From an uncultured bacterium (GTDB lineage Bacteria > Abyssobacteria > SURF-5), in assembly GCA_964607485.1 (NCBI GenBank), contig CAZSKP010000004.1:96001-160000 (forward strand): 64,000 nucleotides of DNA, given 5' to 3'. Shown in pieces: positions 13,514 through 37,360 of this stretch. Under the pieces are notes generated by a model. That model saw only the letters and a program-made list of their open reading frames with translations, was not told where the DNA came from and did no database searches. The position numbers and the translations under genes are program-made. The first letter of the stretch is position 1, and the number at the start of each line of letters is the position of its first letter.

Positions 13514-15049
13514 ATGCTCGCGAAGGTCTTCAGCAGTTCCGTGTTCGGGGTGGACGCCTACCAGGTCGAGGTCGAGGTGGACCTGGGCGGCGGGCTGCCT
13601 TCGTACACAGTCGTCGGCCTGCCCGACACGGCCGTCAGGGAAAGCAGGGAACGCGTCGCCGCCGCTATCAAGAACTCCGGCTACGTGCTGCCCAGCAAGC
13701 GCATCACCGTGAACCTCGCCCCCGCCGACGTGAAGAAGGAGGGCTCATCGTTCGACGTGCCCATCGCCATCGGCATCCTCGCCGCCTCCGAGCAGGTCAA
13801 GAGCGAGAAATTCCTCGACTATTACATTGCAGGGGAATTATCGCTCGACGGAACCATCCGCGGCATTCCCGGCGTGCTGACGATGGCGCTTCAGGCGTCG
13901 AAGATGAACAGGCGCGGCATCGTCGTTCCCACCGACAACTCGGCCGAGGCGGCGGTCGTCGAGAAGGTGGAGGTCATACCCGCGAAGACGCTGCGAGCGC
14001 TCGTCGATTTCCTCGAAGATTTCACGCCGATCGAGCCTCACCGGATAGACCTCGAAGCCGCCTTCAGGCAAAGCTCCCGATATGCGATTGACCTTCAGGA
14101 GGTGAAGGGACAGGCGCACGTGAAGCGGTCGCTCGAGGTCGCCGCCGCGGGAGGGCACAACGTGCTCATGATCGGCCCGCCCGGCTCGGGCAAGACGATG
14201 CTGGCCAAACGCCTCGCGACCATCCTGCCCGATATGACCCTCGAAGAGTCATATGAGACCACGAAGATTCACAGCATCAGCGGGTTCCTTCCTCCGGGGA
14301 AGCCGCTCATCGCGACGCGGCCGTTCCGCTCGCCGCACCACACGATTTCCGACGTCGCGCTCGTCGGCGGAGGCAACTACCCGAGACCGGGCGAGGTCAG
14401 TCTCGCGCACAACGGCGTCCTGTTCCTCGACGAACTGCCCGAGTTCAACCGGAAGGCGCTTGCGGCGATGAGACAGCCGCTCGAAGACGGCTGCGTCACC
14501 ATCTCGCGCGCCGCATATTCGCTCACCTTTCCCGCCAGCTTCATGCTCACCGCCGCGATGAATCCGTGTCCGTGCGGTAACCTGGGCGACCCCAGGCGCG
14601 AGTGCACGTGCCAGCCGTGGCAGGTGCAGCGGTATCTCGGCAGAATATCCGGCCCGCTGCTCGATCGGATCGACATGCACATGGAAGTACCCGCCGTCAA
14701 GTATGCCGACCTTTCATCCACCGAGCCGTCGGGCGAGCCCTCCGCCGCAATTCGCACGCGCGTGCAGAAGGCGAGGAACCTCCAGCGCGAGCGCTTTGGC
14801 GACGATTCGCTCCGATGCAACTCGCAGATGGGCTCGAAGCATGTGAAGAAATATTGTGTTACCACCGCCGACGCGAAGGAGCTTTTGAAGGCGGCCATCC
14901 TCAACCTCGGCATCTCCGCCCGTGCCTACGACCGCATCCTCAAAGTCGCTCGCACCATCGCCGACCTCTCCGAGAGCGATGTCATCCGCGCCGAACACAT
15001 TTCCGAGGCCATCCAGTACCGCAGCTTCGATAGAGGCCTCTGGAGGTAG
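13514..15049 (+). CDS. comM: YifB/ComM Mg-chelatase-like AAA+ ATPase
   Basis: '[15 protein letters not shown]', '[18 protein letters not shown]', 'GPPGSGKT', 'RPFRSPHH', '[15 protein letters not shown]', 'NPCPCG', '[18 protein letters not shown]'. Confidence 0.96.
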
Positions 15050-15182
15050 GATGGAATTGCGCTTGAAGCCGGGGTACTTATGGGCCTGTAGCGAATGAGA
15101 GACAGCTATGACCAATGTGGCTTTCGGACTACCATAAAATGCGGATAGCGTCATCGGGGAAAATCAGCAGGATGCCAAAATA

Positions 15183-16271
15183 GTGAGTGACAAAGACCGC
15201 GTTGACTATCCGTATCAGGTTTCGCTCCACCTTACCGAGGCCTGCAATCTGCGCTGCAAGATGTGCTACTTCTGGGGGGAGACCGGCCGCTATGTCAATA
15301 CCGGCGACAGAGAGAAGCCCAAATCTCTCGACATCGACAGGCTGAAGCGGTTGGTACGAGAGCTCGCCCGAGCGCGCCCGAACTACGAACTGTTTGGCGG
15401 CGAGCCTTTATCGTATTCGCACCTGGAAGAGATCATTCGCGCGATCAAAGAGGCCGGTTCGCCTGTCGAAGCTCCCACGAATGGCACTCTGCTGGAAAAG
15501 TATTCATCGCTGCTGGTGGAAACAGGCTTTGATTCTATTCGCGTGTCGCTCGATGGCCCGCGGGAGATAAACGACGCACAACGTGGCAAGGGCAGCTATG
15601 ACAAAGCGATGGCGGGCATCGAGGCCGTCTTCAAAGAAAAGATAAGGGTAGGCTCAGCTTCTCCCATTTTGAGTGTCACTTATACCGTCACACCGGAAAA
15701 CTACCTCTTCATCGAGCAGTTCTTCCTCCATGAGCTGAACCTGGAGGCAATGGATTGGGTGACGATCCAGAGTCAGAATTTCATCACGGAGGCAATGGGA
15801 CTGGCCTACGCGAAGCTGCTTGAATCGGAATTCGGGATAACGAGTGATTCCTTCTGGCGTGGCTTGGTGAGGTCGCGGGAAGATCTTGCTGAAATGGATA
15901 CCGTCGAACTCTCGCGACAGGTAGGAGAAGTTCAAGAACGTTTCGCGGAGCTTGGCAAGAATGTCCTGCTTCTGCCCCGCACATTTACACCCGAAAACCT
16001 ATCCGCATATTTCCGCATGGACTGGGGTAAGATGAGCGATAGATACTCAAGTTGCCCAGTTCCGTGGAGTTCGCTCGACGTCACTGCAAACGGCGATGTC
16101 GCCGCCTGTCACATCTTTTACGACCTCGTGATGGGCAATATCTACGAGCAGAGTTTTGAAGAGATCTGGAATGGCGAACCCTATAGGAAATTGCGAGCCC
16201 ATATGGAGCGCAAGGGTCTCATGTCGATATGTCCCGGCTGTTGCATCCTCTATCTGGTTGGTAGCACATAA
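15183..16271 (+). CDS. Radical SAM/SPASM domain protein
   Basis: CNLRCKMC motif, 'GGEPL', C-terminal 'CPVPW...GDVAAC...GNI...EEIWN...CPGCC'. Confidence 0.9.
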   Translation: MSDKDRVDYPYQVSLHLTEACNLRCKMCYFWGETGRYVNTGDREKPKSLDIDRLKRLVRELARARPNYELFGGEPLSYSHLEEIIRAIKEAGSPVEAPTNGTLLEKYSSLLVETGFDSIRVSLDGPREINDAQRGKGSYDKAMAGIEAVFKEKIRVGSASPILSVTYTVTPENYLFIEQFFLHELNLEAMDWVTIQSQNFITEAMGLAYAKLLESEFGITSDSFWRGLVRSREDLAEMDTVELSRQVGEVQERFAELGKNVLLLPRTFTPENLSAYFRMDWGKMSDRYSSCPVPWSSLDVTANGDVAACHIFYDLVMGNIYEQSFEEIWNGEPYRKLRAHMERKGLMSICPGCCILYLVGST

Positions 16272-16435
16272 TGATCCCGCCTCTCCAAGGCAGCTGCGCG
16301 CCGCGATGGAACCGCCATGACGCCGAATTTGCATTTGATCTCAAAGCCCGCTATGATAATTCCGAATTTGCGCATGACGCGTGAATCGAAATCGTCGCGC
16401 CTTTGCTCCGGGTGGAGCAAGCAGGGAGGTTCGTT

Positions 16436-17491
16436 ATGACTGAGGATGTTTACAAGAGACTACGTGAATTCTTGGACAAGCTGCCGGGGGGATATCCCGA
16501 GACCGACAGCGGGGTCGAAATCAGAATCCTGAAGAAGTTGTTCTCGCCCGAGGACGCCGAACTGACGATGAAACTTAAGCCTGAACCCGAGGGGGTTTCT
16601 TCTATAGCGGAGCGTCTCGGTATCGATGAAGCGAACGCGGCCGAGAAGCTCGAGGATATGGCGAAGCGCGGCCTCATCTTCCGGACGAGGGAAGACGGCA
16701 AGCCGAAGTACCAGGCGTTTCAGTATATCGTCGGCATCTACGAATTCCAACTGCCTCGCATAGACCGCGAATTTGCGGAGTTGATGGAGGAGTATTTCCC
16801 CTATCTGGGAATGTCATTCGCGCCGCTCAAGACCAAACAGCTTCGAATTGCGCCAGTGAATTCCTCGGTCGATGCCCTGCCGACGGTGGCGCCGTATAAC
16901 AAGATTCGCGAATTGGTCAAGCAGCAGAAGCTTATCTTGAATAATCCCTGCATTTGCCGGAAGGAACAGGAATTGCTCGGCAACAAGTGCGACCGGCCGC
17001 GGGACCTGTGCTTTTCGTTTGGCAAGTTTGCGCAATACGGTTTGGACAACGGTACGGGGACGCAGATCACGCCGGAAGAGGCGTTGAAGCTTCTCGACAA
17101 GGCCGAAGAAGCAGCGCTGGTGATGTCGCCCAGCAATACGCAGGAGCTTGAATTCATATGCTGCTGTTGCGGCTGCTGCTGCGGTAGTCTCAAACGCATT
17201 AAGCTGCTCGAAAATCCTGCCGATTTCGTCCAGTCGTATTACCGGGCCGTGATCGACCCGGACGAGTGCACCGCGTGCGGAACGTGCGTTGACCGATGTC
17301 AAGTCGCTGCAATCGAGGAAAAGGATGACGTGATGGAGGTCAATCCGGCTCGCTGCATCGGCTGTGGGCTGTGCGTGTCGGAGTGTCCGGTCGAAGCCAT
17401 CACGCTCGAGGAAAAGGAGGGCGAGGAAGCTCCGCCTGCGGATATAGACGAGGTCCTCCACAGACTCGCAAGCGAAAGGGGACTGAGCTAA
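16436..17491 (+). CDS. Polyferredoxin / 4Fe-4S binding protein with N-terminal HTH-like region
   Basis: 'CICR', 'ICCCCGCCC', two CxxCxxCxxxC motifs; GGAGG RBS. Confidence 0.88.
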   Translation: MTEDVYKRLREFLDKLPGGYPETDSGVEIRILKKLFSPEDAELTMKLKPEPEGVSSIAERLGIDEANAAEKLEDMAKRGLIFRTREDGKPKYQAFQYIVGIYEFQLPRIDREFAELMEEYFPYLGMSFAPLKTKQLRIAPVNSSVDALPTVAPYNKIRELVKQQKLILNNPCICRKEQELLGNKCDRPRDLCFSFGKFAQYGLDNGTGTQITPEEALKLLDKAEEAALVMSPSNTQELEFICCCCGCCCGSLKRIKLLENPADFVQSYYRAVIDPDECTACGTCVDRCQVAAIEEKDDVMEVNPARCIGCGLCVSECPVEAITLEEKEGEEAPPADIDEVLHRLASERGLS

Positions 17492-17524
17492 CGAGATATT
17501 GTTTTTCGGCTTAACAGACTATAT

Positions 17525-17554
17525 GGGGGCGCATCCGGTTGCGCTCCCTTTTTT
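17525..17554 (+). terminator. Rho-independent terminator
   Basis: gggggcgca/tgcgctccc hairpin followed by a T run. Confidence 0.65.
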
Positions 17555-17672
17555 GTTGTCGGCGCGCCGCCTCGATTCTTTCGACCCTGAAAGGAGTCCT
17601 ATCGCCCCAACGGTCAGGGTTCGGTCAGGTGCACGCTTTGAAGGCAGTTCGCTTGGGATGGCTGTGTAGTTG

Positions 17673-18752
17673 TCAGAACGGGCTGGAATATATGCTTTGC
17701 AGTCTTCTGAATATTTCTTCCGCCTCTCCCATCATGCGTTCGATCAGCTCTTTGCAACTTGGTATGTCGCCGATCATGCCTGAACCTTGTCCCGCAGTGA
17801 TGGTGCTGTTCTCCAGATTGCCATACAAGAAAGCGGACACGGTTTGATGACTTTCCGGAAGGAGGTCGGAGGAACCCGAAGCTCTGACGAGTTCCTCAAA
17901 TGTAGCAACCCCACCCGTTTTCATTAGAATTTGCCTTGCGAAATCGTTGAGAAGGATTCTGACAGAGCCCCGTCGTTCCTCGACGAAGCCCCTCTCTCCT
18001 CTCTTCTCGTCGTCTTCAGGTTTTGGGCTCCCGTGTCGCAACGCAATTGTGCTCGTGTCGGTTGCCTCAAGAATCGCACGCTTGACCCTGGGATGCGCAG
18101 GGCATTCCTTTGTGGGAATGAAACGCGTTCCCATGTACACGCCGTCCGCGCCGAGAGACAGCGCCGCCACAAGACCCCGCGCATCCACAATTCCTCCTCC
18201 CGCAATGACAGGAATCGCAATCGCGTCGGCGGCCTGCGGCACGAGACACAGCGTCGTAATCTGGTCAAACCCGCTGTGCCCGCCCCCCTCCGTTCCGGAC
18301 ACAATGACTGCTTCCACTCCGGCCTCCTCGGCCTTTTTGACATGCCTGACCGTCGAGCAGACATGGATTACTTTCATTCCGCTGTTCTTCAGCCTCTCAG
18401 TATAGGCCATTGGATTGCCCTGGGACACGATTGCCACCGGCACGTGCTCCTCGATTCCCACCTGCACACACCGGTCGCTGAAATCGCGGTCCCAGCCCAC
18501 TACCCCAACCACGAAGTTCACGGCGAACGGCTTATCCGTCATCTCCCTGCACGTTTTGATCTGTTCCCTCAAACGCTCTCCCGTTTCGTCGATGTCGGTC
18601 GTCACCGTCTTGCTCCCCGCATTGGGCCCTATTGTCCCCAGACCACCGGCTTCCGAAACCGCCGCGGCGAGGCCCGCATCCGCAATCCAGGCCATCGATG
18701 CCTGGATGATCGGATAGTCGATCCCCAGGAGTTCCGTTATTCTTGTCTTCAT
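17673..18752 (-). CDS. Nitronate monooxygenase / FabK-like flavoprotein
   Basis: 'MKTRITELLGIDYPIIQ', 'LAAAVSEAGGLG', 'EGGGH', 'PVIAGGGI', 'GVYMGTRF'. Confidence 0.92.
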   Translation of the reverse strand: MKTRITELLGIDYPIIQASMAWIADAGLAAAVSEAGGLGTIGPNAGSKTVTTDIDETGERLREQIKTCREMTDKPFAVNFVVGVVGWDRDFSDRCVQVGIEEHVPVAIVSQGNPMAYTERLKNSGMKVIHVCSTVRHVKKAEEAGVEAVIVSGTEGGGHSGFDQITTLCLVPQAADAIAIPVIAGGGIVDARGLVAALSLGADGVYMGTRFIPTKECPAHPRVKRAILEATDTSTIALRHGSPKPEDDEKRGERGFVEERRGSVRILLNDFARQILMKTGGVATFEELVRASGSSDLLPESHQTVSAFLYGNLENSTITAGQGSGMIGDIPSCKELIERMMGEAEEIFRRLQSIYSSPF

Positions 18753-18881
18753 CTCAGGGTGTCCTCCAATGTATTCTCATTCGAGCCGGATAGACCCGGA
18801 TCGTTCAGGCTCTAAAGGCCGTCCTCGGCCGACGGCCTTTGCGCGGTCCGGCCTCCATCGGTGGATTGCCGGACTATCAGC

Positions 18882-19922
18882 CTACGGTTTCCTGCCGGTG
18901 ATTCTGGTCAGAGAACCGGGAATAAATGAATGGACCTGAACATCGATAAATCCGGCATTCTCCAGATATCCAACCACTTCTCCCTCGGAATGAGCTCGTC
19001 CCTCGCTTCCGAATAGAGCCTCGTGAATGCCCCAGAGGGCCGGACCCAGCGGCCCGCATTTTTCATCGTTCAAGGTTTCCCCGACGACATGGTATTCTCC
19101 ACCCGGCTGCAGCGCCTCGTAAGCCTTTGTGAGAATCTTCAGGAGAACGCCTTCGCTGTATTGCGGCAGGTTGCTCGCCATAATCATCACATCGGCGCCG
19201 CGCGGAAGTGGGTCTCTGGTGAAGTCTGCCGGATAGACTGAGATTTTGTCTTGCATTTCCCATTGAGCTATGAACTCTTGCGCTACCTTGCACACGGGTT
19301 CGAAATCCAATACGGTCGCCTTGAGATGGGGATACTTCTGGATTGCCGCTATGCAATACGCGCCGGAACCGCCGCCGAGGTCGAGTATCATTGATCGTCC
19401 GCTCAGGTCCACATCCCTGGCAAACAGCATGCCTGCGCCCAAACCGACGGCGTACGTGGCCTCATGATACTCTCTGGCAATCTCTTCCGTCATGCTTTCG
19501 TAAAGCCCGAGCACCTTGGGAGGGGTGTCCGATTTGAGGTGGTCGGCCAGGTTCTTCCACTGCTCGAAATCCATTCCGGCAAAAAGCAGCCACGGCCCGA
19601 TGTAGGTAAGCTTTCCTCGTACCAGAAATCGCTCCACATCGGGCGCGTTCCGGTATTGGTCTCCTTCCTTTTCCAGGAGCCCGAGAGCCGCGCAGGCAAC
19701 GACAAGCCTTTCCGCATTGAGGTCACTCAAACCAACAGCGCCTGCGACTTGAGAAACATTTATGGCGCCCTCAGATACCCTGGTAAACAAATCCAATTGT
19801 ATCGCTGCTCTCAGAGTTGCACTCTGTTTGTGTCCGTAACTCAGGTTCTGCAAGCGCACGGTGTCTGTCTTTCTCTTACGAGTTGTCACGGATGCCTCCA
19901 AAACATTCTTGCGCCCTGTCAC
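18882..19922 (-). CDS. SAM-dependent O-methyltransferase with dimerisation domain
   Basis: 'LRAAIQLDLF' dimerisation helix, 'LDLGGGSG' SAM motif, 'ALQPGG'. Confidence 0.9.
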   Translation of the reverse strand: MTGRKNVLEASVTTRKRKTDTVRLQNLSYGHKQSATLRAAIQLDLFTRVSEGAINVSQVAGAVGLSDLNAERLVVACAALGLLEKEGDQYRNAPDVERFLVRGKLTYIGPWLLFAGMDFEQWKNLADHLKSDTPPKVLGLYESMTEEIAREYHEATYAVGLGAGMLFARDVDLSGRSMILDLGGGSGAYCIAAIQKYPHLKATVLDFEPVCKVAQEFIAQWEMQDKISVYPADFTRDPLPRGADVMIMASNLPQYSEGVLLKILTKAYEALQPGGEYHVVGETLNDEKCGPLGPALWGIHEALFGSEGRAHSEGEVVGYLENAGFIDVQVHSFIPGSLTRITGRKP

Positions 19923-20749
19923 GTCTGGGGTGGTGTGCCGCCTTCTTCTTGAAGCATTTGTTCTATGCTTTTTATGAAGCCCGAAAAATCAAAGGACGTG
20001 TCCCATGTGTAGGGGAGGTCCACAATTTCACCCGGATTCGAGGCCGATGCGAGCACGTTCAGCGCATCCTTCAGAACCTGGGTCTGAAGCTCGACATCAT
20101 GCGGTTTGCCGCATTGATGGCCGAGCGGGAAATTGAGGAATGCGCTGCGAGGAGGTTTGACCCGGGCCATCATGTATCTGCACGAGCCGAGGTAAATTGT
20201 GGAGAGTCCGGCTTCTTCGATCTTGCGTGCTATCAGTCCGACCGACTGATGGTCCAGCGGTCAGGCCGGGACAAGCAGGACAAAATCTGCGCCCTCCCGT
20301 TTCAGAAGAGCCAGTATTTCGGGCACAGTCTCATTCTGTAGCGCTGTGCGTTTATAGAGCCGACCCATCCCGAGCGTGACCGCAATCGGCGCCAACTTTC
20401 CTATGTACCGTTCAGCCTCGAGTTCCTTCAGCCGCTCGACGGGAAACACGCAGTTTAGGTCATTTGCGGCGTCTCTGTGGTCGAAGTAGTTGTGATGAAG
20501 CCTGAGCCTTTCGTATGGGGTGTCGATTGGAATCTGACGGAAGCTCAAGTCATTCACAGCCCAAGGGTTGAACGGCTCTTGGTCGTCTCTGGAAATGCCG
20601 GCTGAACTGACCAGCGCCAGGCAACCTTCTTTCAGCGGTTTGCTCAGCGAAGACCACGGACTCGTGTCAAATTCGGACCATTTATAGGGCGGGAATCCTT
20701 GACTCTGATACATCTCGTTGAGGGCCGATACATAATCTATGGGCTTCAT
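19919..20749 (-). CDS. Selenoprotein of the glycine/proline reductase B (GrdB/PrdB) family, UGA at 20261-20263
   Basis: Two ORFs in one frame joined across TGA: 'DFVLLVPA-U-PLDHQSVGLIARKIEEAGLST...PPR...FPLGH'; family motifs 'LVSSAG', 'DLNCVFPVERL'; hairpin directly after the UGA. Confidence 0.85.
20232..20250 (-). promoter_or_regulatory. Putative bacterial SECIS
   Basis: ATCAGTC-GGTCG-GACTGAT hairpin starting about 11 nt after the UGA, with G first in the loop. Confidence 0.75.
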
Positions 20750-20796
20750 TTATTGCACCTCCTTGCCGTGTAATGAGAAATGCCCGCAAGAGACCA

Positions 20797-21921
20797 TCAG
20801 AGTCCCATTTCCCGGGCAACTAATTCTCTGTGAAAATCCGCATCTCCGAACATCTGTTCCGCGGCCTTCGCCCGTTTGAAGTAGAGCTGGAGGTCATGCT
20901 CTTCCATAAAGCCGATGCCGCCGATAACCTGGTGGCCCAACGCTACCAGTTTGCGGTGGGAATCGCTCACCCAAGCCTTGCACATCGAGGCTTCCAGCTC
21001 GAAAGGAAGTCCTGAGGCGATTCTCCACGCCGCCTCGTACGTCATGTATTTGACCGTATCGGCATATGTGAGCATGTTGGCGCAGTGATGCTGAACGGCT
21101 TGAAATGCGCCGACCGGGCGACCAAACTGTGTCCGATCCTTGACGTAGGTGACCGCCATTTCCAGAACTTTCTGGGCCGCACCGACCATCTCAGCGCTCT
21201 TGGCAACGGCAGACATCAGGAGCACTTTCTTCAGGATGTGCCATGCCGTGCCAACTTCTCCAAGCACGTTGTTCCTCGGCACCGCGACCTCATCGAAAAT
21301 CACCTCACACTGCTTATCGCCCGCCAGCGTGTCGAGGGGGGCAATCTTGATTCCGTCGCTCTTCGCGTCAACCAGGAACAGAGTGACGTCCTCCGGTTCC
21401 GCACCGGTTCTGGCGACACAAATGATGGTATCGGCCACATGAGCGTCCGGCACAAAGAGTTTCGTTCCGGAAAGGATATACTGGTCGTCCCGAAGCCTGG
21501 CAGCCAGCTTTATTGCATCGGGAGAGTAAGTGCCGGCTTGTTCCAGCCATGCCAGTGTCAGAATACGACTCCCTTCGGCGAGTTCGGGCAGGATTTCCGC
21601 CTTTTGTTCCTCGCTTCCCGCTTCAATCAGCGTGAGTCCGCCAAGGACAACGGTGGAGAAAAACGGTCCCGGCAGGCAATAATGGCCCATCTCAGCCAGA
21701 AGGACCACCAGATCGAGAAAGGTCATATCGGAGCCGCCATATTCTTCCGAAACCAGAAGGCCCATCCATCCCAACTCGGCCATCTTCCGCCAGAGGTTCT
21801 GCGTGAACCCCTGTTTATCCTTTGCCATTTCCCGCACAAGCTCGCTCGGACATTCGTCGGCCAGAAACTTGTGCGCCGATTCCCTGAGCATATTCTGTTC
21901 TTCCGTAAGGTCGTAATACAT
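20797..21921 (-). CDS. Acyl-CoA dehydrogenase (likely second subunit of a heteromeric pair)
   Basis: 'LWRKMAELGW', 'LSGTKLFV', 'RTQFGRPVGAFQAVQH', 'GGIGF..EHDLQLY'. Confidence 0.92.
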   Translation of the reverse strand: MYYDLTEEQNMLRESAHKFLADECPSELVREMAKDKQGFTQNLWRKMAELGWMGLLVSEEYGGSDMTFLDLVVLLAEMGHYCLPGPFFSTVVLGGLTLIEAGSEEQKAEILPELAEGSRILTLAWLEQAGTYSPDAIKLAARLRDDQYILSGTKLFVPDAHVADTIICVARTGAEPEDVTLFLVDAKSDGIKIAPLDTLAGDKQCEVIFDEVAVPRNNVLGEVGTAWHILKKVLLMSAVAKSAEMVGAAQKVLEMAVTYVKDRTQFGRPVGAFQAVQHHCANMLTYADTVKYMTYEAAWRIASGLPFELEASMCKAWVSDSHRKLVALGHQVIGGIGFMEEHDLQLYFKRAKAAEQMFGDADFHRELVAREMGL

Positions 21922-21938
21922 TTTCCTCTTTCCCTTCC

Positions 21939-23105: not shown

Positions 23106-23153
23106 TATCTGGTTCCTCCCATCGATTTAACTTTACCCGTGTTACGGGCCGGA

Positions 23154-26073: not shown

Positions 26074-26157
26074 CTGATATTTTCGTCGATTTACTCGCCA
26101 GAATCAGGCTATCATCTCGCAACCATGATACTCGCCCGCCGCTCTAATTTCAAGCAA

Positions 26158-27036: not shown

Positions 27037-27110
27037 TCGCATCCGGCGACATGCTGCACAAAGCCCTCGAAAAGCGTGCAAAAATGGGGCTTTTCCTCTC
27101 TCTCTCCTGA

Positions 27111-27869: not shown

Positions 27870-27931
27870 GTTCTTGTCGATGTTGACAACGGATGCTTGA
27901 CTCAATCTCAGTGGTTGGGAGGATTGGACTT

Positions 27932-28462: not shown

Positions 28463-31400
28463 AAGGACAATCTTCATTTGTCAGGGTACGGGTTGTGTGT
28501 CGGCAGGGTCGCCCGACATAGCCGCTGCAATTGAAGACGAGGCTCGAAAGCTGGCCCTCACGGATGTTGAAGTAAAACTCACCGGATGCCACGGCTTCTG
28601 CCAACGAGGGCCGATAGTCATCGTCGAGCCCGAAGGAATCTTCTATTCCGCCGTAGAGGCTAAAGACGCAACCGAGATCGTTCATTCCCACCTGAAGAAC
28701 AATAAGCCCTTAGAACGCCTGTTTTACAGACATCCCGTCACAGACGAGCCCATTCCCCACTATCGCGACATTCCGTTCTATAGTGAACAGCAACGAGTGG
28801 TCGTTCTCCGCAACTGCGGCCATATTTGCCCCGAAGTCATCGACGATTATCTGGCTGTCGGCGGTTATGACGGCCTGAAAAAAGCGCTGACCGAGATGAC
28901 CCCCGAGCAGGTCATAGAAGAGGTCAAGAAATCCGGGCTTCGCGGCAGGGGAGGTGCGGGCTTCCCGACGGGAAGGAAATGGGAGCTCTGTCATAATGCT
29001 CCAGGTTCCAAGAAATACATGGTATGCAACGCCGACGAAGGGGATCCGGGAGCATTCATGGACCGCAGCGTGCTCGAAGCTGATCCACACAGCGTCCTCG
29101 AGGGTCTCGTAATCGCCGGATATGCCATAGGGGCCGACGAGGGTTATATCTACGTGCGCACTGAGTACCCGTTGGCAGTGCATCGAATCCGCACGGCCAT
29201 ACGGCAGGCTGAAGAGAAAGGCTTCCTGGGGCGAAACATCTTTGGCTCGAAATTTCACTTTCGTGTGAATGTTATGGAGGGCGCGGGAGCCTTCGTCTGC
29301 GGCGAGGAAACGGCCCTCTTGGCTTCCATAGAGGGGAAGAGCGGAAGACCTCGACCTCGGCCTCCCTTTCCAGCCCAATCCGGTCTTTGGGGCAAACCTA
29401 CAACAATAAATAACGTGAAATCCCTTGCCAGCATCCCGGTGATTATCTCAAAAGGCCCGGATTGGTATGCCGCCATCGGGACCGAAAAATGCAAAGGGAC
29501 CGCCGTATTCGCCCTTACCGGCAATATCGCAAATTGTGGTCTTGTGGAAGTGCCGATGGGGACCTCGCTTCGTAAGATTATTTATGACATCGGCGGTGGA
29601 ATTCCCGGCGGCAGGGCATTTAAAGCCGTCCAGACCGGAGGCCCTTCAGGAGGCTGTCTGCCGTCGAGCTTCCTGGATCATCCCGTTGACTACGAGTCCC
29701 TTGCCAGCGCGGGCTCAATCATGGGTTCCGGCGGCATGGTCGTTATGGACGAGAACACATGTATCGTGGATATCGCTCGATACTTCGTTGACTTCACGCA
29801 AAGGGAATCCTGCGGCAAATGCATGCCGTGCCGCCTTGGCACAAAACAGATGTTGGAAATCCTTGAGGACATAACACGAGGCAAGGGAAGGCCCGGAGAT
29901 ATCGACCTGCTCGTTGACATAGGCGAAGCGGTCAAATCGGGTTCGCTTTGCGGTTTGGGGCAGACTGCCCCGAATCCGGTGCTCAGCACGATTCGGTATT
30001 TCAGGGAAGAATACGAAGCCCATGTTAAGTACAAGAGATGTTCGGCAGCCGCGTGCAAGGAGATAATATCTTCCCCTTGCCAACATGCCTGTCCGATAAG
30101 CACGCAGGCAGCGACCTATATTTCCATGATTGCTGAAAGCCGCTTCGACGAGGCGATGGACATAATTTGGATGGACAATCCACTCCCGTCGGTCTGCGGC
30201 AGGGTATGTCATCATCCATGCGAGTTGAAATGCCAAGCGGGCAAATGGGGCGACCCCATCTCGATCAGGGCGCTCAAGAGATTTGTTACCGATTATGCAA
30301 TCAGCAATGGAACCTACTCCGTCGAAGAAAGAACACCGACGAAAACCGAAAAGGTGGCGATTGTCGGTGCCGGGCCGGCAGGTTTGGCGGCGGGTCACTC
30401 CCTCGCCCAGAAGGGATATAATGTTACTGTGTTCGAAGCCCTCCCGGTCGCCGGTGGCGCCGCAGCCGTGTACATACCGGAATACAGATTGCCGAAAGAC
30501 ATCCTCAATCTTGACATCGAGAATATCAAGAAGACAGGCGTGGAAATAAGAACAAATACCAGAGTGGGAAAAGATATATCCTTCGACCAGCTTCGGGATG
30601 ATTATAATGCAGTGTTTATCGCTGCGGGAGCACACGAGTCACGAAAGTTGGGCGTTCCAAACGAAGACGCCGATGGCGTATTGGATGCCATGGAATTCCT
30701 GAAAGCCGTGAATCTCAAGAAGGGCGTCAAAGTAGGAAAACGGGTCGGCGTCATTGGTGGAGGCAACGCCGCGGTTGATGCCGCCAGGGTGGCGATGCGG
30801 CTCGAAGGGTGTGAGAAGGTTCACCTGATCTACAGGAGAACGCGGAACGAGATGCCCGCGTTCAAGGAGGAGGTGGACGCGGCGATTGACGAGGGCATTG
30901 ACATCGTCTATCTCGCCGCTCCCTCCAAGATCGTGACACAGCAAGGGCGAATCACAGGAATCGAATGCATAAGGATGGAGCTGGGACCGCGTGACGAAAG
31001 CGGCAGGAGAAGACCTGTTCCTATCAAGGGATCGGAATTCGTCGTCGAGCTGGACACACTCCTCGTTGCGATCGGTGAAGTGCCCGATGTCTCATTTCTT
31101 GGTGAGATGTGCGGCGTCGAAGTGTCAAAGAGAAACACGATCGCGGTAAATCGCGAAACACTCGCGACTAATGTAGAAGGGGTCTTCGCGGGAGGCGACA
31201 TCGTGACCGGTCCGAATACGCTCATAGAGGCTGTCGCAGCCGGCAAGAGGGCGGCGGAATCCATCGACAGATACATTCGTGGCGAGAGCCTGGTGGGGGA
31301 ATACAACGTCACACGACCTTCAACGTACTTGCCTCCGGTCGAACTGACGGAGGAAGAGATTGCAGAGGCTGAAAGAGCGGCCACTCCGCATCTCTCTATC

Positions 31401-31550
31401 GAACGCAGACAAAGGAGTTTTGATGAGGTCGAACTCACACTCTCCGAAAAGGCGGCAATAAAAGAGGCAAGGCGCTGCCTCAGGTGCGATTTGGAGACTG
31501 AAGACGCCAAGGAATGGCTTGAACAAGCTGCGTCGATGAAGGGTGCTTAA
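28449..31550 (+). CDS. NuoF/HydB-like NADH-binding subunit fused to a GltD-like FAD oxidoreductase
   Basis: 'SGLRGRGGAGFPTG', 'CNADEGDPGAFMDR', 'GAFVCGEETAL', 'CGKCMPCR', then 'PCQHACP', 'GAGPAG', 'GGGNAAVD', 'EARRCLRC'. Confidence 0.92.
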   Translation: MKNNKRTIFICQGTGCVSAGSPDIAAAIEDEARKLALTDVEVKLTGCHGFCQRGPIVIVEPEGIFYSAVEAKDATEIVHSHLKNNKPLERLFYRHPVTDEPIPHYRDIPFYSEQQRVVVLRNCGHICPEVIDDYLAVGGYDGLKKALTEMTPEQVIEEVKKSGLRGRGGAGFPTGRKWELCHNAPGSKKYMVCNADEGDPGAFMDRSVLEADPHSVLEGLVIAGYAIGADEGYIYVRTEYPLAVHRIRTAIRQAEEKGFLGRNIFGSKFHFRVNVMEGAGAFVCGEETALLASIEGKSGRPRPRPPFPAQSGLWGKPTTINNVKSLASIPVIISKGPDWYAAIGTEKCKGTAVFALTGNIANCGLVEVPMGTSLRKIIYDIGGGIPGGRAFKAVQTGGPSGGCLPSSFLDHPVDYESLASAGSIMGSGGMVVMDENTCIVDIARYFVDFTQRESCGKCMPCRLGTKQMLEILEDITRGKGRPGDIDLLVDIGEAVKSGSLCGLGQTAPNPVLSTIRYFREEYEAHVKYKRCSAAACKEIISSPCQHACPISTQAATYISMIAESRFDEAMDIIWMDNPLPSVCGRVCHHPCELKCQAGKWGDPISIRALKRFVTDYAISNGTYSVEERTPTKTEKVAIVGAGPAGLAAGHSLAQKGYNVTVFEALPVAGGAAAVYIPEYRLPKDILNLDIENIKKTGVEIRTNTRVGKDISFDQLRDDYNAVFIAAGAHESRKLGVPNEDADGVLDAMEFLKAVNLKKGVKVGKRVGVIGGGNAAVDAARVAMRLEGCEKVHLIYRRTRNEMPAFKEEVDAAIDEGIDIVYLAAPSKIVTQQGRITGIECIRMELGPRDESGRRRPVPIKGSEFVVELDTLLVAIGEVPDVSFLGEMCGVEVSKRNTIAVNRETLATNVEGVFAGGDIVTGPNTLIEAVAAGKRAAESIDRYIRGESLVGEYNVTRPSTYLPPVELTEEEIAEAERAATPHLSIERRQRSFDEVELTLSEKAAIKEARRCLRCDLETEDAKEWLEQAASMKGA

Positions 31551-31665
31551 ATGAGGAAAACCTCCTGTCATTTTTGGATGATCTGGAGATAATTAAGGCC
31601 GCCATTTCTGGGGCCGGTATTTCGTTCAATGCTGCGCATCTTCCATGACTTAAGGAGAAAGAAGC

Positions 31666-34614
31666 GTGAAAAAGGTTACGCTCACAATTGACGGACGCAA
31701 AATTGCAGTGCCTGCGGGGTCCACCGTGCTGGATGCGATCCGGGCGGCGGGTCTCTATGTGCCCACCCTTTGCCACGATTCTGAACTGAAACCATACGGA
31801 GCATGCCGTTTGTGCATCGTTCAGATAGAAGGCTTGCGAGGGCTGCCTACATCTTGCACCACCCCTGCCACAGAAGGCATGGTCGTGCACACGGAAAGCG
31901 AGCAGATTCGCAACGTTCGCAGAACCGTTGTGGAATTGGCAATCGCGAATCATCCGTACGATTGTCTCCTCTGCAGCCAGAACCAGGAATGCGAGCTCCT
32001 GAGCGTGGCCCGATACGTTGGTGTCGAGAAGGGGGCGCTGGAGCGGATGCGGAGAGGCGCGCTGGACAGGGCCATCGACACATCCAACCCCGCCTTCGAT
32101 TTCGACCCGAACAAGTGCATCCTCTGCGGAAGATGTGTGAGGATATGCCAAGAACTCACCGGAGTGGGCGCAATAGACTTCGCCTATCGCGGGAACAAGA
32201 CCGTCGTCACCACGTTTGGCGCAAGACCGTTGGCGTTGTCCCGATGTCAGAACTGCGGCGAATGCATGGAGCATTGTCCAACGGGAGCCCTGTCGCCGAA
32301 GCTCGCGGTCGCTCCTCAGCGTGAGGTCGAGACCACCTGCCCATACTGCGGCGTCGGCTGCTCCATGTATCTCGGGGTGCGCGGGCGCGAAATCGTTCGC
32401 GTCAGAGGGGCGAAGGAAAACAGCGTAAACCCGGAAGGTCTCTGCGTGAAAGGGCGGTTCGGACTCGATTTTGTCAATCATCCCGACCGCTTGACCCGGC
32501 CTCTGATTCGGAAAGAAGGTGCGCCCAAGGGTGATGGGCAAGTCGATCCGATGGAAGCGTTTCGCGAGGCCAGTTGGGATGAGGCGCTGGACCTCGTGGC
32601 CGAAAAACTTGGCCGCATCCGTGACGAGCACGGTCCTGACGCCATCGGGGTGATCAGTTCCGCCAAGTGCACGAACGAAGAGAACTACGTCATTCAGAAA
32701 TTCGCCAGGGCCGTCATCGGAACGAATAACGTCGACCACTGCGCCAGGTTGTGCCACGCCTCCACCGTGACGGCCGCGCTCGCGTCGTTCGGCTCCGGCG
32801 CCATGAGCAACTCGATTTCGGATATCGACCATGCCGACATGTTGTTTGTCATCGGGTCGAACACGACGGAATGCCATCCCATCATCGGAAGGCGTATCAA
32901 ACGGGCCGTCCGTTTTAACGGGGCCAAATTGTTAGTTGCCGACCCGCGCATCACCGAACTGGGCGAGATGGCCGACGTGCGCATGAACCATTTTCCCGGT
33001 ACCGATGTCGCTCTGATGAACGGCATGATGCGTCAGATCGTCGATGAGGGAATGCACGACAAGAAGTTCATCGATGAGCGGTGCGAGGATTTCGAGCCGT
33101 TCCTCGAATCGTTGCAGCAGTATCCCGTCGATTATGTGAAAGATATTACCGGCGTTCCGGCCGAAAAGATACGCAAAGCCGCGCGTTTGTTCGGCAAGGC
33201 AAAGAGAGCCATCGTCTTCTACGGCATGGGCATCACGCAGCACACCACGGGAACCGACAACGTAAAGGCCGTCGCCAATCTGCTCATGTTGACCGGAAAC
33301 ATGGGTCGCAGGGGCACGGGCTTCTCGCCGTTGCGCGGTCAGAACAACGTGCAGGGGGCCTGCGACCTGGGGGCGCTCCCGAATGTCTTTTCCGGCTATC
33401 AGGTCGTCACCAGCCCGGAGGTGAGGGCCAAGTTCGAAAAAGCCTGGGGAACGAGCTTGTCGGATCGACCCGGCCTCACCCTCACGGAGATGTTCGGCGC
33501 GACACATGAGGGCCGGCTCAAGGCAATGTACATCATGGGCGAGAATCCCACCATGAGCGAGCCCGACGCGAATCATGCCCGGGCCGCCCTCGCGGAACTC
33601 GATTTCCTTGTCGTTCAGGACCTCTTCCTGACGGGGACGGCCGAATACGCCGACGTGGTGTTGCCTGCGACAAGCTTTGCCGAAAAGGACGGAACCTTCA
33701 CCAACACGGAGCGAAGGGTGCAGATGGTTCGCAAGGCCATCGACCCGCCCGGCGAGGCGCGCGTGGACTGGGAGATCACCGCCGACATCTCAAGGAGGAT
33801 GGGATATCCCATGGAGTACGCCTCCAGCGCCGAGATAATGGATGAGATCGCCGAGTTGACTCCCATCTATGGAGGTATCCATCACGATCGACTGCAGAAG
33901 GGCGGATTGCAGTGGCCGTGCCTGAATCGCAAACACAAAGGCACGCTGTTCCTTCACAAAGGCCGATTCTCCCGAGGGCGTGGAAAATTTCACGTGCTGC
34001 ACGATAAACCGCCGGCCGAACTGCCGTCGCGCCTTTATCCGCTCGTTCTCACGACCGGCAGGATTCTTGAGCATTGGCACACGGGCAGCATGAGCCACAG
34101 GTCGCACGTCCTCGAGACGTTGCAGCCCGAGAGCAGCGTCGAACTGAGCCCGACAGACGCCGAGCGACTCGGCATCGAAGAGGGCGACATGGTTTCGGTG
34201 CGCTCGCGGCGCGGCCAGGTTCACACGAAGGCCAAGAAAACTCCTCGCGTGCGACCCGGCCAGGCCTTCATGGCCTTCCACTGGCTCGATGCTCCGGCGA
34301 ATCTTCTGACGAACCCGGCTCTGGACCCTGTGGCCAAAATCCCCGAGTACAAGGTATCCTCCGTGCGGGCCATTCTTGACGTGCTCGAACGCGCGGCCGA
34401 GGACAACGCGTTCATCGCCGCCCTTGCCGAGAACCCCGCCGGCGCACTGAGCTCCTACGACCTCACGCCTGAACACCGCGAGGCCCTGCTCAACGCGGAT
34501 TTCAATGCGCTCGAAGAGTGGATAGGCCCGCTCGACGACCGTCTCAAGATTTGGCTGAAGCACCGGCTCAAGCAGGAGAAACTGTCGGAGGCATCTGAGA
34601 CACCCCGCAAGTGA
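31666..34614 (+). CDS. fdhA: Formate dehydrogenase alpha subunit (Mo/W-bisPGD, Cys-type) with N-terminal FeS domains and a C-terminal extension
   Basis: 'TTCPYCGVGC', 'LCVKGRFG', 'DHCARLCH', 'PLRGQNNVQG', 'FTNTERRVQ', 'AKIPEYK'. Confidence 0.93.
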   Translation: MKKVTLTIDGRKIAVPAGSTVLDAIRAAGLYVPTLCHDSELKPYGACRLCIVQIEGLRGLPTSCTTPATEGMVVHTESEQIRNVRRTVVELAIANHPYDCLLCSQNQECELLSVARYVGVEKGALERMRRGALDRAIDTSNPAFDFDPNKCILCGRCVRICQELTGVGAIDFAYRGNKTVVTTFGARPLALSRCQNCGECMEHCPTGALSPKLAVAPQREVETTCPYCGVGCSMYLGVRGREIVRVRGAKENSVNPEGLCVKGRFGLDFVNHPDRLTRPLIRKEGAPKGDGQVDPMEAFREASWDEALDLVAEKLGRIRDEHGPDAIGVISSAKCTNEENYVIQKFARAVIGTNNVDHCARLCHASTVTAALASFGSGAMSNSISDIDHADMLFVIGSNTTECHPIIGRRIKRAVRFNGAKLLVADPRITELGEMADVRMNHFPGTDVALMNGMMRQIVDEGMHDKKFIDERCEDFEPFLESLQQYPVDYVKDITGVPAEKIRKAARLFGKAKRAIVFYGMGITQHTTGTDNVKAVANLLMLTGNMGRRGTGFSPLRGQNNVQGACDLGALPNVFSGYQVVTSPEVRAKFEKAWGTSLSDRPGLTLTEMFGATHEGRLKAMYIMGENPTMSEPDANHARAALAELDFLVVQDLFLTGTAEYADVVLPATSFAEKDGTFTNTERRVQMVRKAIDPPGEARVDWEITADISRRMGYPMEYASSAEIMDEIAELTPIYGGIHHDRLQKGGLQWPCLNRKHKGTLFLHKGRFSRGRGKFHVLHDKPPAELPSRLYPLVLTTGRILEHWHTGSMSHRSHVLETLQPESSVELSPTDAERLGIEEGDMVSVRSRRGQVHTKAKKTPRVRPGQAFMAFHWLDAPANLLTNPALDPVAKIPEYKVSSVRAILDVLERAAEDNAFIAALAENPAGALSSYDLTPEHREALLNADFNALEEWIGPLDDRLKIWLKHRLKQEKLSEASETPRK

Positions 34615-34651
34615 CGGGCTGAGCAGACTCCTCTCTTGACTTCTTTTGGTC

Positions 34652-34682
34652 AACGGGCATGACGACCGTCGTCATGCCCGTT
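34652..34682. repeat. Perfect inverted repeat (terminator-like or REP-like)
   Basis: aacgggcatgacga-ccg-tcgtcatgcccgtt. Confidence 0.7.
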
Positions 34683-34759
34683 TTCTCATTCCATCTCCTC
34701 TCCCCATCGCCGCCATTGCAGAGCGACCGGCACTCAACGGCGTGTTGCCCAAAACGTCC

Positions 34760-35020
34760 TGTCATTCCCGCGGAGCCTGTCCTCGACCCTGATCGGGGAG
34801 CGGGAAACCAGCGTTGTCTCAGGAGCACTCGACAACAGGCCACTAAGAATGGCACACCCCGCCCCTTAAGGCACGAAGGGACACCCTTGGGAAAGGTTAG
34901 AAATAGCCAACTACTATTCGGAGCAGCAAATAGTTGTCATTCTGAGCGCAGCGAAGAATCTCGAAGAATACAGTAGCTTTGGGCTAAACATGAGATCCTT
35001 CACTTCGTTCAGGATGACAA
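34760..35020. repeat. Cluster of REP-like palindromic elements
   Basis: 'tgtcattcccgcg...gcgggaaacca' and 'tgtcattctgagcgcagcgaagaatct...agatccttcacttcgttcaggatgaca'. Confidence 0.7.
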
Positions 35021-35273
35021 GCATGTGACGTATTTCATGCACCTTGTAGTAATTCAGGAAATTAACAACGCTGGCGAACTCTGCCATCTTCTTCATCTTC
35101 AACATTCCTGCAAAAAATGCTATAATGCCGGGAAAACAGAAGGGACTGTGAAACTCCATGTGCGTATAGAGAAAGACATGGAAGGGGCTTCCCATTATTC
35201 AACCCGTTGAGCTTTAACGAATCATAGAAGGAAGCGTCTTAATAAATGTCAAACTGGCAGGGAGGAATTGGCA

Positions 35274-35522
35274 ATGGCAGTTTTGTTCATAGTAATAATT
35301 GGTACCTCTATTTTCTGTTTTTATCAAGGATATATTGGCACGGGCATAATCTGCCTCATCGGTTTTTCCAAAACGATCGGCTTTTTGGCACTCATATACA
35401 CTTCAATCTATCTATTTTTCAAGGGCCACTATGTGATGGGATTTGCACCAATCGGGTTGATCGCATGGAATATTATTGGGATGTATTGGACCGAGAGGGA
35501 TCGACATCGAGCAGAAGAGTGA
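35274..35522 (+). CDS. Small AT-rich membrane protein
   Basis: GGAGG RBS; almost entirely hydrophobic. Confidence 0.6.
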   Translation: MAVLFIVIIGTSIFCFYQGYIGTGIICLIGFSKTIGFLALIYTSIYLFFKGHYVMGFAPIGLIAWNIIGMYWTERDRHRAEE

Positions 35523-35539
35523 CCCAGCAAAGAGAGAAT

Positions 35540-35647
35540 AGGGTCTCCCGCACAATCGCCGACCTCGCCGAGTCCGAAACTGTTCGTGCCAGGCGAATCT
35601 CCGGGGAGACTTAGTACCGGAGGTCTGATAAGGGGCGTTGGAGGTGA
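35540..35647 (+). repeat. Direct copy 2 of the comM 3' end (decayed)
   Basis: RVSRTIADLAESETVRARRISGET*YRRSDKGRWR* aligns without gaps to com[36 protein letters not shown] (19/35 aa). Confidence 0.9.
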
Positions 35648-35790
35648 GGAGAAGAGGCGTCGTCTTGGCCTGAATAGAAGTTTTGTGTACAGAATAGTAG
35701 GAAGGTTCAAGAGAGGAAAGAAAGGAATAAATGGTTCAATAAGAAGCCCGAAGCTCTCGAATTAGGAACGAATCAATGGAGGCGGTTTAA

Positions 35791-36552
35791 ATGGAGACGC
35801 CAAATCCGGCCAAGCGAATGAAGATATACTCCAGAATCAAAGGGAAATGGAGAGAACTTGTTGCGGCCGTTGCTGTCATATTATTTATCATCACTTCTGT
35901 TCTTACAGACAACAAGTCTGGTGTTGTGGTTAGCTTCTTGATCTTGATTTCAATCCTCTATCTCGACCGAATCAAAGGAATTATAATCGAGATGAGGATA
36001 AGAAGAATATTTGGTATTGAACTGGCTGAAGAAGTCTTCAAGGAGGAACTGCGCCGTGAGGCACTCAAGAGGAAACCAGATCTCGACGAGGAAGATGTTG
36101 ATATGATTGCCGACTTGGCGCTCAACCGTATTGAGGGTCCCTACCGTAAAGCAAAGTTGTTTGAAGATATCGTCCAACTTGCACTGAACGATCTGAATCT
36201 GACATTTCAAAGAGGGGTAACCTATCCTTCTCTTGCCAGCCACCCTCAGATTGATTTTTTAGTTGAGTTAGGTCAAGAACGCCTTGTTGGCATAGCAGTC
36301 GCATACAGTGATCTGATGTATCTTACTGACGACCATCTTTTTCGAGCAATTAAGATGTCAAACGCATTATCTGAGCACTTCAATCTTGCTGGCTTCTTGC
36401 TGATAACAAATGCCGCAGTTGGAGAAAGAGACAAGACAACTTTGAACGAGCAAGAGCCAAGAATTGATGTCATCGAGAGTGTAATATCTCCTGATGGCGT
36501 CACGTCAAGATTGTCGTCCTATTTCCAACAAATTGCCGAAAGAATAAACTGA
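35791..36552 (+). CDS. Hypothetical membrane-anchored protein, possible degenerate PD-(D/E)xK fold
   Basis: GGAGG RBS, two N-terminal TM helices, 'LFEDIV...QIDFLVE...GIAVAY'; low GC. Confidence 0.65.
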   Translation: METPNPAKRMKIYSRIKGKWRELVAAVAVILFIITSVLTDNKSGVVVSFLILISILYLDRIKGIIIEMRIRRIFGIELAEEVFKEELRREALKRKPDLDEEDVDMIADLALNRIEGPYRKAKLFEDIVQLALNDLNLTFQRGVTYPSLASHPQIDFLVELGQERLVGIAVAYSDLMYLTDDHLFRAIKMSNALSEHFNLAGFLLITNAAVGERDKTTLNEQEPRIDVIESVISPDGVTSRLSSYFQQIAERIN

Positions 36553-36585
36553 TAGCAAATCATTCACCCCGCGGACGGTGTCACT

Positions 36586-37173
36586 ATGCGGATAGAGACG
36601 CTAAAAGACTACATTCTCTTCTGGTTGAATTCCGCAAGGACCCTAGGCAAAGTGAGAAGAACATCCGAGCTTTTGACTTGGGTCTTCGGTTTGTGTGTCG
36701 CAATTATAGCTTTTCTTGGCTCAAATTTCGTGACGGCGGTGTTGGGGATTTGCGCAACAATCTCAGCTTTGCTTACGATTGTGGCTAACAAGCAGCTGGA
36801 CAATCTAAATGCTCCCCGTACCATAGATACCAACCGGAAACAACTGATACTCGATGCACTCGCCAACATAGCACCGTGTCGAGTAATAATATCGGCTGCG
36901 ATCGGCGATTGTGAGGCCATCAATCTTGCAGAGGAACTGGCGAAGGTCTTCAAAGATACAGGATGGCAGGTGGAAGGGCCCGACTATTCTCCTCTGTCGT
37001 CTGATGACCAAGGCATTATACTTCGCGCACATGACCAACATTCGGCTCACAAAGAAGTCTCGGCTCTAAAGGAGGCCTTGGCTACTTGCGGCTTCGAAGT
37101 AAGAATGGAGTTCGATGAGCGCATACCGAACAAAGCAATTGACCTGCTGATAGGCTATAAAGGCTTTCGATGA
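36586..37173 (+). CDS. Hypothetical membrane protein
   Basis: 195-aa ORF with two N-terminal TM segments; low GC. Confidence 0.65.
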   Translation: MRIETLKDYILFWLNSARTLGKVRRTSELLTWVFGLCVAIIAFLGSNFVTAVLGICATISALLTIVANKQLDNLNAPRTIDTNRKQLILDALANIAPCRVIISAAIGDCEAINLAEELAKVFKDTGWQVEGPDYSPLSSDDQGIILRAHDQHSAHKEVSALKEALATCGFEVRMEFDERIPNKAIDLLIGYKGFR

Positions 37174-37191
37174 AAGCTAACCTCGTTAGAA

Positions 37192-37360
37192 ATGATGACG
37201 GCTTACGAGGCCAAAGCGTTGCTCAAGTTGGCCATCTTTAAGCTCGGTTTCTCGGACCGCGCATATGAGTGTGTCCTCAGAATTGACCACACCACTGCAG
37301 ACTTTTCCGAATACATCTTCAGGGGCGATTCAGTTTCGGAGTTTTCATGGGAAATTGTGA
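37192..37360 (+). repeat. Direct copy 3 of the comM 3' end (most decayed)
   Basis: EAKALLKLAIFKLGFSDRAYECVLRIDHTTADFS matches com[35 protein letters not shown]; after a deletion and frameshift, AIQFRSFHGKL* matches [11 protein letters not shown]. Confidence 0.88.

Follow-up and report, generated by a model that had tools for sequence, protein, structure and literature searches.

Insertions at the 3' end of a bacterial gene are known from several systems. In Escherichia coli, e14 and phage 21 insert at the 3' end of icd, supply a surrogate tail of tens of codons with mostly silent differences, and leave the displaced pseudo-tail at the far end of the element. ICESt1/3 at fda represent tandem accretion at the 3' end of a target gene. 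The gene comM is itself the target of the AbaR/Tn6022 Tn7-like islands of Acinetobacter, which split the gene and carry transposition genes; its product is a recombination helper in natural transformation. Arrays formed by C-terminal displacement are reportedly the subject of studies by Jackson in 2009 and Koskiniemi in 2014. Here we describe a 64-kb stretch of DNA from an uncultured bacterium (the window, to which the analysis of this genome refers) in which an intact comM is followed by three same-strand copies of its own 3' end with blocks of other genes between them. The locus is very probably a stack of three successive tail-replacing insertions at the 3' end of comM.

For type VI secretion system (T6SS) and Rhs arrays, passages of PMC5361080 propose tail displacement without a recombinase through homology-facilitated illegitimate recombination, a process summarised in a section of PMC3240628. 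Dehalococcoides carries tandem islands at ssrA, 15 of which lack an integration module according to the relevant part of PMC3146451, and the definition and accretion scheme of cis-mobilizable elements (CIMEs) are given in a portion of PMC5704250. In Acidithiobacillus ferrooxidans, an island of 94.9 kb that carries an integrase and has a 14-bp repeat is tabulated at comM in PMC10322971, and insertion of integrase-bearing islands at this gene has thus been reported before. Searches of an open-access library, for which "comM" is an awkward search word, brought up no account of comM tails in a stack.

comM and its downstream tail copies

The gene and its copies lie as follows (F1 to F3 being, very probably, displaced tails).
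13514..15049, plus strand: intact comM, encoding a YifB/ComM-type Mg-chelatase-like AAA+ ATPase
14858..15049, plus strand: live comM tail, the portion repeated downstream, codon 463 to stop (from tblastn query ranges and codon comparison)
26158..26205, plus strand: F1, tail copy, last 15 codons plus stop, frame intact
35540..35647, plus strand: F2, tail copy, last 35 codons plus stop
37195..37363, plus strand: F3, tail copy, about codons 463-525 (~63 codons)

The intact gene has a GC content of 0.636 and a full-length product in which Pfam recognises all three domains, namely ChlI (E 1.3e-47), Mg_chelatase (1.4e-95) and Mg_chelatase_C (4.8e-33). Its likely start is ATG 13514; TTG 13472 opens the longest open reading frame (ORF), and codon numbers are counted from 13472. 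A tblastn search of the window with ComM gave three downstream matches, all on the same strand and all to the C-terminal part. This is exactly the arrangement that the initial annotation had read from the sequence, with fragment coordinates that prove right to within a few bases, and every fragment translates through to a stop codon, as it had also claimed. No further copy of the comM tail was found by tblastn on either strand of the window, where matches at E > 0.1 look like chance, and among the direct-repeat families within 12000-40000 a repeat search ranked the comM tail first. The sole other match below E 0.01, at 49761-49943 (E 0.002), was discarded as the P-loop of a different AAA+ gene.

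F1 is matched at 26158-26202 by tblastn (87% over 15 aa, E 0.002) and at 26158-26203 by blastn (83% of 46 nt, E 3.4e-7), and its opening 13 nt are identical to 15002-15014. Against the live tail it has 9 identical codons, 5 synonymous and 2 non-synonymous, the silent changes including a stop-to-stop and an arginine AGA-to-CGG replacement. Because the differences are mainly synonymous, F1 was at one time the working tail of another comM allele, and the excess of silent changes shows divergence of F1 from the live tail as working coding sequence in separate lineages.

F2 is matched at 35540-35644 (54% over 35 aa, E 4.5e-6) and is still recognised by Pfam as Mg_chelatase_C (E 1.9e-4). Of its codons, 13 are identical, 7 differ synonymously and 16 non-synonymously, and one is a nonsense codon, an in-frame TAG that replaces Gln at 35612-35614. 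The fragment itself has a GC content of 0.61 and sits in low-GC DNA on both flanks, 0.39-0.43 at 34900-35539 and 0.45 at 35648-37191, a likeness of the two sides that a simple serial model does not predict. F3 is matched at 37195-37341 (46% over 50 aa, E 3e-7; Mg_chelatase_C E about 1e-3), with 8 identical, 12 synonymous and 30 non-synonymous codons among its opening 50. Its frame is lost ~40 codons in; the final residues resume in the next frame and are followed by TGATAG at 37358-37363. The gaps relative to the live tail after the opening 50 aa are of about 4, 1, 14 and 3 nt.

Fragment length thus grows with distance from comM (16, 36 and ~63 codons), as does damage, from none in F1 through one nonsense codon in F2 to frame-breaking gaps in F3. 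The fragments start at codons 511 (F1), 491 (F2) and ~463 (F3). No core sequence common to all four tail copies was found; older copies may have decayed. The damage gradient and the mostly synonymous divergence bear out the proposal of the initial annotation that DNA entered repeatedly through the comM tail and pushed the old tail downstream in order of age. F3, as the oldest stub, would adjoin the original neighbour of comM, a thiolase gene, and F1, as the youngest, lies closest to comM.

Tail stubs in other genomes and collections

A genome scan for comM gave at least 80 loci, the closest among the matches listed being 63% identical; across the 80 loci listed, which represent many phyla, ComM is 53-63% identical to that of the window. 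Each of these loci was searched with its own comM tail, 59 of the 80 having at least 5 kb of downstream sequence. Same-strand downstream stubs were present at two of the 80 distant loci, L027 and L003. In L027, an Akkermansiaceae metagenome-assembled genome (MAG), the last 40 codons recur 8.2 kb downstream, from codon ~487, with 7 synonymous and 1 non-synonymous differences from the live tail of the same gene. The stub of L003 (MAG STD1_102) lies 2 kb downstream and joins codons 384-421 to codons 490-514, with ~11 synonymous and 1 non-synonymous changes in the opening 38 codons and 8 and 3, respectively, in the final 25; the duplicated segment measures up to ~130 codons. Mostly synonymous divergence in F1, L027 and L003 points to stubs that were former working alleles, not local duplicates. 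Two weak own-tail matches were taken as chance, one in L007, which lies upstream on the opposite strand (E 0.018), and one in L074 (E 0.042).

The five stub starts all differ (codons ~384 in L003, 487 in L027, and 463, 491 and 511 in the window), which indicates that there is no common crossover site. An identity run opens each of the young stubs, 13 nt in F1, 27 nt in L027 and 11 nt in L003.

The L027 block holds genes for an ABC transporter, an amine oxidase, NDH-2 and a short-chain dehydrogenase and a remnant of formate-tetrahydrofolate ligase, and the L003 block holds two unknown, secreted-looking ORFs. The ligase remnant (~9479-9641, minus strand, near the right end of the L027 block) covers 54 residues of a 556-position profile, and the block therefore includes gene debris. 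Both blocks end ~140 nt into intergenic DNA, and no recombinase was found in the 19 ORFs scanned from the two loci. The unknown ORFs of L003, L027 and the window's Block C (described below) have no homology to one another. A tblastn comparison of 26 window proteins with the 80 loci listed revealed no shared neighbourhood. The ABC transporter that opens the L027 block also occurs behind comM in some Bacteroidota; this candidate link was dropped at only 25-31% identity.

The specificity of the stubs was assessed on 907 ORFs of at least 150 aa from the 80 loci listed and the window. Isolated same-strand downstream own-tail stubs follow 3 of 81 comM genes versus none of 826 other ORFs (Fisher p 7e-4), or 2 of 80 versus none of 786 when the pre-selected window is left out (p 8e-3). 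Other own-tail matches, in L002, L030 and L039, were set aside as domains common to adjacent paralogues. comM is special in this comparison, whose controls are for the most part much less well conserved genes, so that the test is not clean.

In E. coli, the comM tail occurs at 5,432 places in 5,426 complete genomes, about one place per genome, so the phenomenon is essentially absent there and restricted to some lineages. No isolated ComM tails were seen in a phage collection, where 6 of the 17 matching records were looked at (four with full-length comM, one an Acinetobacter chromosomal contig starting inside comM and one an unannotated 3-kb contig). Nor were any seen in a plasmid collection, where 48 records matched at one place each and, wherever a feature was annotated under the match, it was a YifB-family gene, apart from one record with an "ATP-binding protein".

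Closer relatives of the window's comM tail, 85-91% identical, occur as short proteins in MAGs labelled Planctomycetota, Candidatus Abyssobacteria and Candidatus Lindowbacteria. A census of short ComM-tail proteins gave 7,916 matches, mostly likely contig-edge partials. Among the 120 listed, 10 have at least 15 non-ComM leading residues, including the fusion ORFs P0024 and P0106, in which part of a DUF2400 or an alanine racemase N-terminal domain is in frame with the last 87-102 ComM residues. These two may be junction ORFs of displaced tails; their contigs are shorter than 1 kb and chimeric assembly is possible. An origin of the odd leaders as frameshift products was considered and rejected, comparison with the window's own frames identifying them mostly as divergent ComM sequence.

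Cargo blocks, the search for insertion enzymes and a post-stop motif

Pfam searches for mobility domains, among them those of integrases, resolvases and transposases, found none in the 67 ORFs of the window (32 in the region of the tail copies and 35 in the remainder). Thirteen stretches that were intergenic or unassigned, scanned at E<=1 as 92 stop-to-stop segments, likewise gave none. The rve, DDE and TnsA domains were likewise absent from the window in the Pfam searches. The statement in the initial annotation that no recombinase lies between the copies is therefore upheld at the available sensitivity, and the degraded integrases that it had raised as a contrary prospect were not recognised in the blocks, intergenic frames included. 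Matches to the helix-turn-helix (HTH) families HTH_28, HTH_29 and HTH_23 at ~35658-35754 (plus strand, frame of 35523; E 0.03-0.16, 12-15 bits) were rejected, being below cut-offs and at chance level for 92 queries. No phage, conjugation or plasmid genes were found among the cargo of the five blocks of the three genomes. A wider PHROG census took in 65 loci as far as 6.5 kb downstream of comM and ORFs of 180-620 aa, 29 longer ones being dropped; none of the 206 ORFs matched an integration/excision family, in a search that had no positive control. Toxin and immunity domains were not found in the window's cargo, which is metabolic or unknown.

The window's blocks and the gene beyond them are as follows.
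15050..26157: Block A, the youngest insertion under the serial model, GC 0.547; genes (Pfam) for a radical SAM/SPASM protein, a Fer4 protein with a weak TrmB-type HTH match, a nitronate monooxygenase-like protein, an O-methyltransferase, a GrdB-like protein (probable selenoprotein), two acyl-CoA dehydrogenases, a PAS protein, a radical SAM protein and an HgdD-type dehydratase subunit
26206..35539: Block B, five named genes (Pfam), all on the plus strand, for a LOG-family protein, a response regulator, a NuoE-like protein, a NuoF-GltD fusion and a molybdopterin formate-dehydrogenase-like subunit
35648..37191, plus strand: Block C, ORFs 35791-36552 and 36586-37173 of no family, GC 0.45
37439..38704, plus strand: thiolase gene (Pfam Thiolase_N 7.5e-74), the original neighbour of comM under the serial model

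The three blocks differ in gene content and GC content, and GC climbs back to 0.58-0.70 on the thiolase side. Behind every tail copy, as behind comM itself, a plus-strand gene begins 66-143 nt beyond, which fits the arrival of each tail together with the block to its right. The window blocks end 84 nt ahead of a start codon and 17 and 21 nt past stops.

In Block A, the GrdB-like ORF and the 84-aa ORF that follows it (19919-20749, minus strand) form one 276-residue frame if TGA 20261-20263 is read as selenocysteine, and the Pfam GRDB model stops just short of that codon. On this reading of the sequence the gene probably encodes a selenoprotein that ORF calling split. The longest ORFs of the two acyl-CoA dehydrogenases (20797-22236 and 21939-23105, minus strand) overlap by ~300 nt; the downstream one, whose Pfam domains begin at residue 111, probably starts later than its longest ORF.

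The genes at 27893-34614 in Block B encode the NuoE-like protein, the 1045-aa NuoF-GltD fusion and the 982-aa molybdopterin subunit, which has N-terminal Fe-S domains. Judged by its domains, this set, which the LOG-family and response-regulator genes precede, resembles a formate dehydrogenase complex of the soluble, NAD(P)-linked type. The formate-dehydrogenase-like gene is followed by a hairpin and T run at 34652-34685 (identified by eye) and, within 34652-34975, by GC-rich palindromic repeats (TTCCCGCGGAG...GGAGCGGGAA; GTCATTCTGAGCGCAGCGAAGAATCTC) that look like small intergenic repeat elements. The distal end of the block is a low-GC stretch with small ORFs, one of which (~35274-35522) resembles a three-helix membrane protein and stops 17 nt short of F2.

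The Block C ORFs had no matches in Pfam, PADLOC or PHROG, and in the ESM Atlas they resembled hypothetical-protein clusters only, one of these being 22% Mrr_cat. ORF 35791-36552 has a hydrophobic N-terminal segment and counts the Mrr_cat-containing cluster among its Atlas resemblances, a weak hint of a membrane-tethered nuclease.

Rfam and tRNA (ARAGORN) scans gave no match. Away from these blocks, residues 111-174 of ORF 9998-10669 are 48% identical to the product of 9641-9832 just upstream on the same strand; this partial duplication has nothing to do with comM.

A short non-coding motif, GAGAAGTYGGGGAC, recurs behind the tails.
26215..26228, plus strand: post-stop motif GAGAAGTCGGGGAC, 10 nt beyond the F1 stop
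37369..37382, plus strand: post-stop motif GAGAAGTTGGGGAC, beyond the F3 stops
about 15064-15078: degenerate post-stop motif behind live comM

The F1 and F3 copies are identical at 13 of 14 positions, versus only ~51% in the adjoining coding parts (counted by hand). There are two exact copies of the motif in the window, and none was found in 86 loci searched for it. Post-stop regions fold no better than shuffles (z -0.2 to -1.5), with no significant structure. The motif may be a conserved site in the 3' flank of comM, or it may have survived by chance.

Routes of insertion and relation to known arrays

The mechanism toward which we lean, tentatively and as a close call, is a recombinase-independent, RecA-type homology-anchored capture ("tail displacement"). 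Incoming DNA would bring unrelated chromosomal-type genes behind the 3' part of another comM allele that was itself functional. One crossover would fall by homology within the strongly conserved comM, and the far end would be closed by an illegitimate or micro-homology join inside the resident comM tail, as in homology-facilitated illegitimate recombination; a circular piece bearing a comM 3' fragment would reach the same product by a single crossover. Each joining would have kept comM whole with a new tail, and the resident tail, severed at an arbitrary codon, would have shifted downstream with everything behind it. Later, the tail-cargo-tail unit could move among relatives by ordinary double homologous recombination. 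comM may be favoured because it is very conserved, and hence an anchor across lineages, because it is non-essential, and because the DNA downstream varies between lineages: ComM identity of 53-63% across phyla makes the gene an unusually good homology anchor, and its position beside lineage-variable DNA makes insertions tolerable.

Capture without a recombinase is supported by the absence of a mobility gene from all five blocks in three genomes and by the cargo, which consists of metabolic operons with the look of plain chromosome. The empty PHROG census points the same way, since if integrases commonly targeted the site, live elements should have appeared. So do the five different junction codons, the duplication of ~130 codons in L003, the recurrence of the layout at two distant loci and the lack of isolated tails in the phage and plasmid records looked at.

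Several observations weigh against such capture. RecA-type capture does not predict the preference for comM seen in the stub counts. The five cargo blocks all terminate between genes, whereas random donor ends should usually cut a gene. The identity runs that open the young stubs could be an attachment-site (att) core, with the proviso that local alignments start with matches by construction. The F1 and F3 motif is better conserved than the coding parts beside it, which hints at a functional site. Homology-facilitated illegitimate recombination is also rare in experiments, as part of PMC5361080 reports.

Much of this would suit decayed site-specific integration, a possible but doubtful explanation in which elements with their own integrase entered at the comM 3' end with a surrogate tail in the phage-type attachment site (attP), accreted in tandem and lost their integration modules, leaving CIME-like islands. 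The apparent comM specificity, the intergenic block ends, the identity runs of 11-27 nt and the conserved post-stop motif all speak for it, and there are precedents in the A. ferrooxidans comM island, the Dehalococcoides ssrA islands and the CIME accretion scheme (in the portions of PMC10322971, PMC3146451 and PMC5704250 that deal with them). It must be set against the lack of any recombinase or mobility gene in the five blocks, the census of ORFs downstream of comM without an integrase-like match, the five different junction codons, an L003 duplication that at ~130 codons is long for an attP surrogate, and the phage and plasmid records looked at, in which no isolated tails were seen.

An unlikely variant places the recombinase elsewhere in the genome: a Xer-type enzyme or orphan integrase would use the comM tail and a short 3' flank to insert integrase-less modules in trans, in the manner of IMEX elements or integron cassettes. 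Such a system would account for the missing cis recombinase in the window, the clean module ends and the motif common to F1 and F3. Its junctions, however, vary in position, the four tail copies share no core, the motif is exact at just two places and absent from the 86 loci, and the post-stop regions lack significant structure.

The initial annotation had further suggested that comM is both catalyst and landing pad. We consider it very improbable that the ComM protein itself drives insertions into the gene that encodes it: all that favours the idea is that the target happens to encode a recombination helper, no result points to action in cis, E. coli has comM yet essentially no extra tails, and the catalyst role goes unsupported where conservation and a tolerant downstream position suffice to account for the choice of anchor. 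Least credible of all is that the copies reflect similarity by chance, a local duplication in tandem or faulty assembly. Although F1 is short (15 aa) and the other two examples come from MAGs, the E-values run from 3e-7 to 5e-6, all fragments end at stops, the synonymous-biased divergence excludes recent local duplication, the blocks are unlike in gene content and GC, and an assembler would not be confused by repeats that are 46-190 nt long and only 55-83% identical.

If homology-anchored capture without a recombinase is correct, a housekeeping gene can serve as a reusable docking point for whole operons, and its stubs would record the order and rough age of acquisitions. Tail displacement would then extend from toxin loci to ordinary metabolism, making the history of gene gain in uncultured lineages legible and offering a testable natural case of homology-facilitated illegitimate recombination. 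A bolder and rather speculative generalisation is that the 3' part of comM acts in several phyla as a recombinase-free landing pad, at which chromosomal gene blocks of relatives build up age-ordered operon arrays with fossil comM tails in between; the arrays could then be exchanged as cassettes by homologous recombination, perhaps aided by activity of the locus in competent cells. Should the blocks prove to be decayed integrative elements instead, the locus would be a normal accretion array, unusual only in its target.

Compared with integrons, to which the initial annotation had likened the locus, the ordering of the array holds, in that new units join at a fixed point and older ones move back; the rest of the likeness fails, there being no IntI, attI, attC or attC-like site, or fixed crossover. 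The AbaR and A. ferrooxidans islands have comM as target in common with this locus, where in contrast the gene is intact and neither transposition genes nor an integrase are present. With e14/phage 21 at icd the locus shares the 3' end of a protein gene as target, a silent-site-biased surrogate tail and a displaced tail; there, a single prophage brings its own integrase, whereas the comM locus is a stack of integrase-less blocks.

Accretion and CIME arrays resemble the locus in their ordered tandem islands, which are bounded by repeats of the target's 3' end with the newest beside the gene and many of which lack integration genes, and in insertion at a 3' end whose reading frame is restored by the incoming DNA (comM is full length). 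They differ in having short fixed repeats (20 bp of ssrA), one insertion point and integrase-bearing members; the comM stubs range from 16 to ~130 codons with different start codons, and no integrase-bearing member was seen.

With Rhs, contact-dependent inhibition (CDI) and T6SS arrays, the locus shares a constant 5' part that receives a new 3' end and genes, orphan 3' ends downstream in the same orientation, and the lack of a recombinase, those arrays spreading by ordinary homologous recombination. Theirs are polymorphic toxins, however, whose retention is explained by immunity-gene selection, whereas the anchor here is a housekeeping AAA+ ATPase with metabolic cargo and a new tail that encodes the same function. 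The comM array thus works like the Rhs/CDI/T6SS family without being a member of it, since it has no toxin or immunity cargo, and is best called a tail-displacement or accretion-type array whose anchor is a housekeeping gene and of which distant bacteria hold independent examples.

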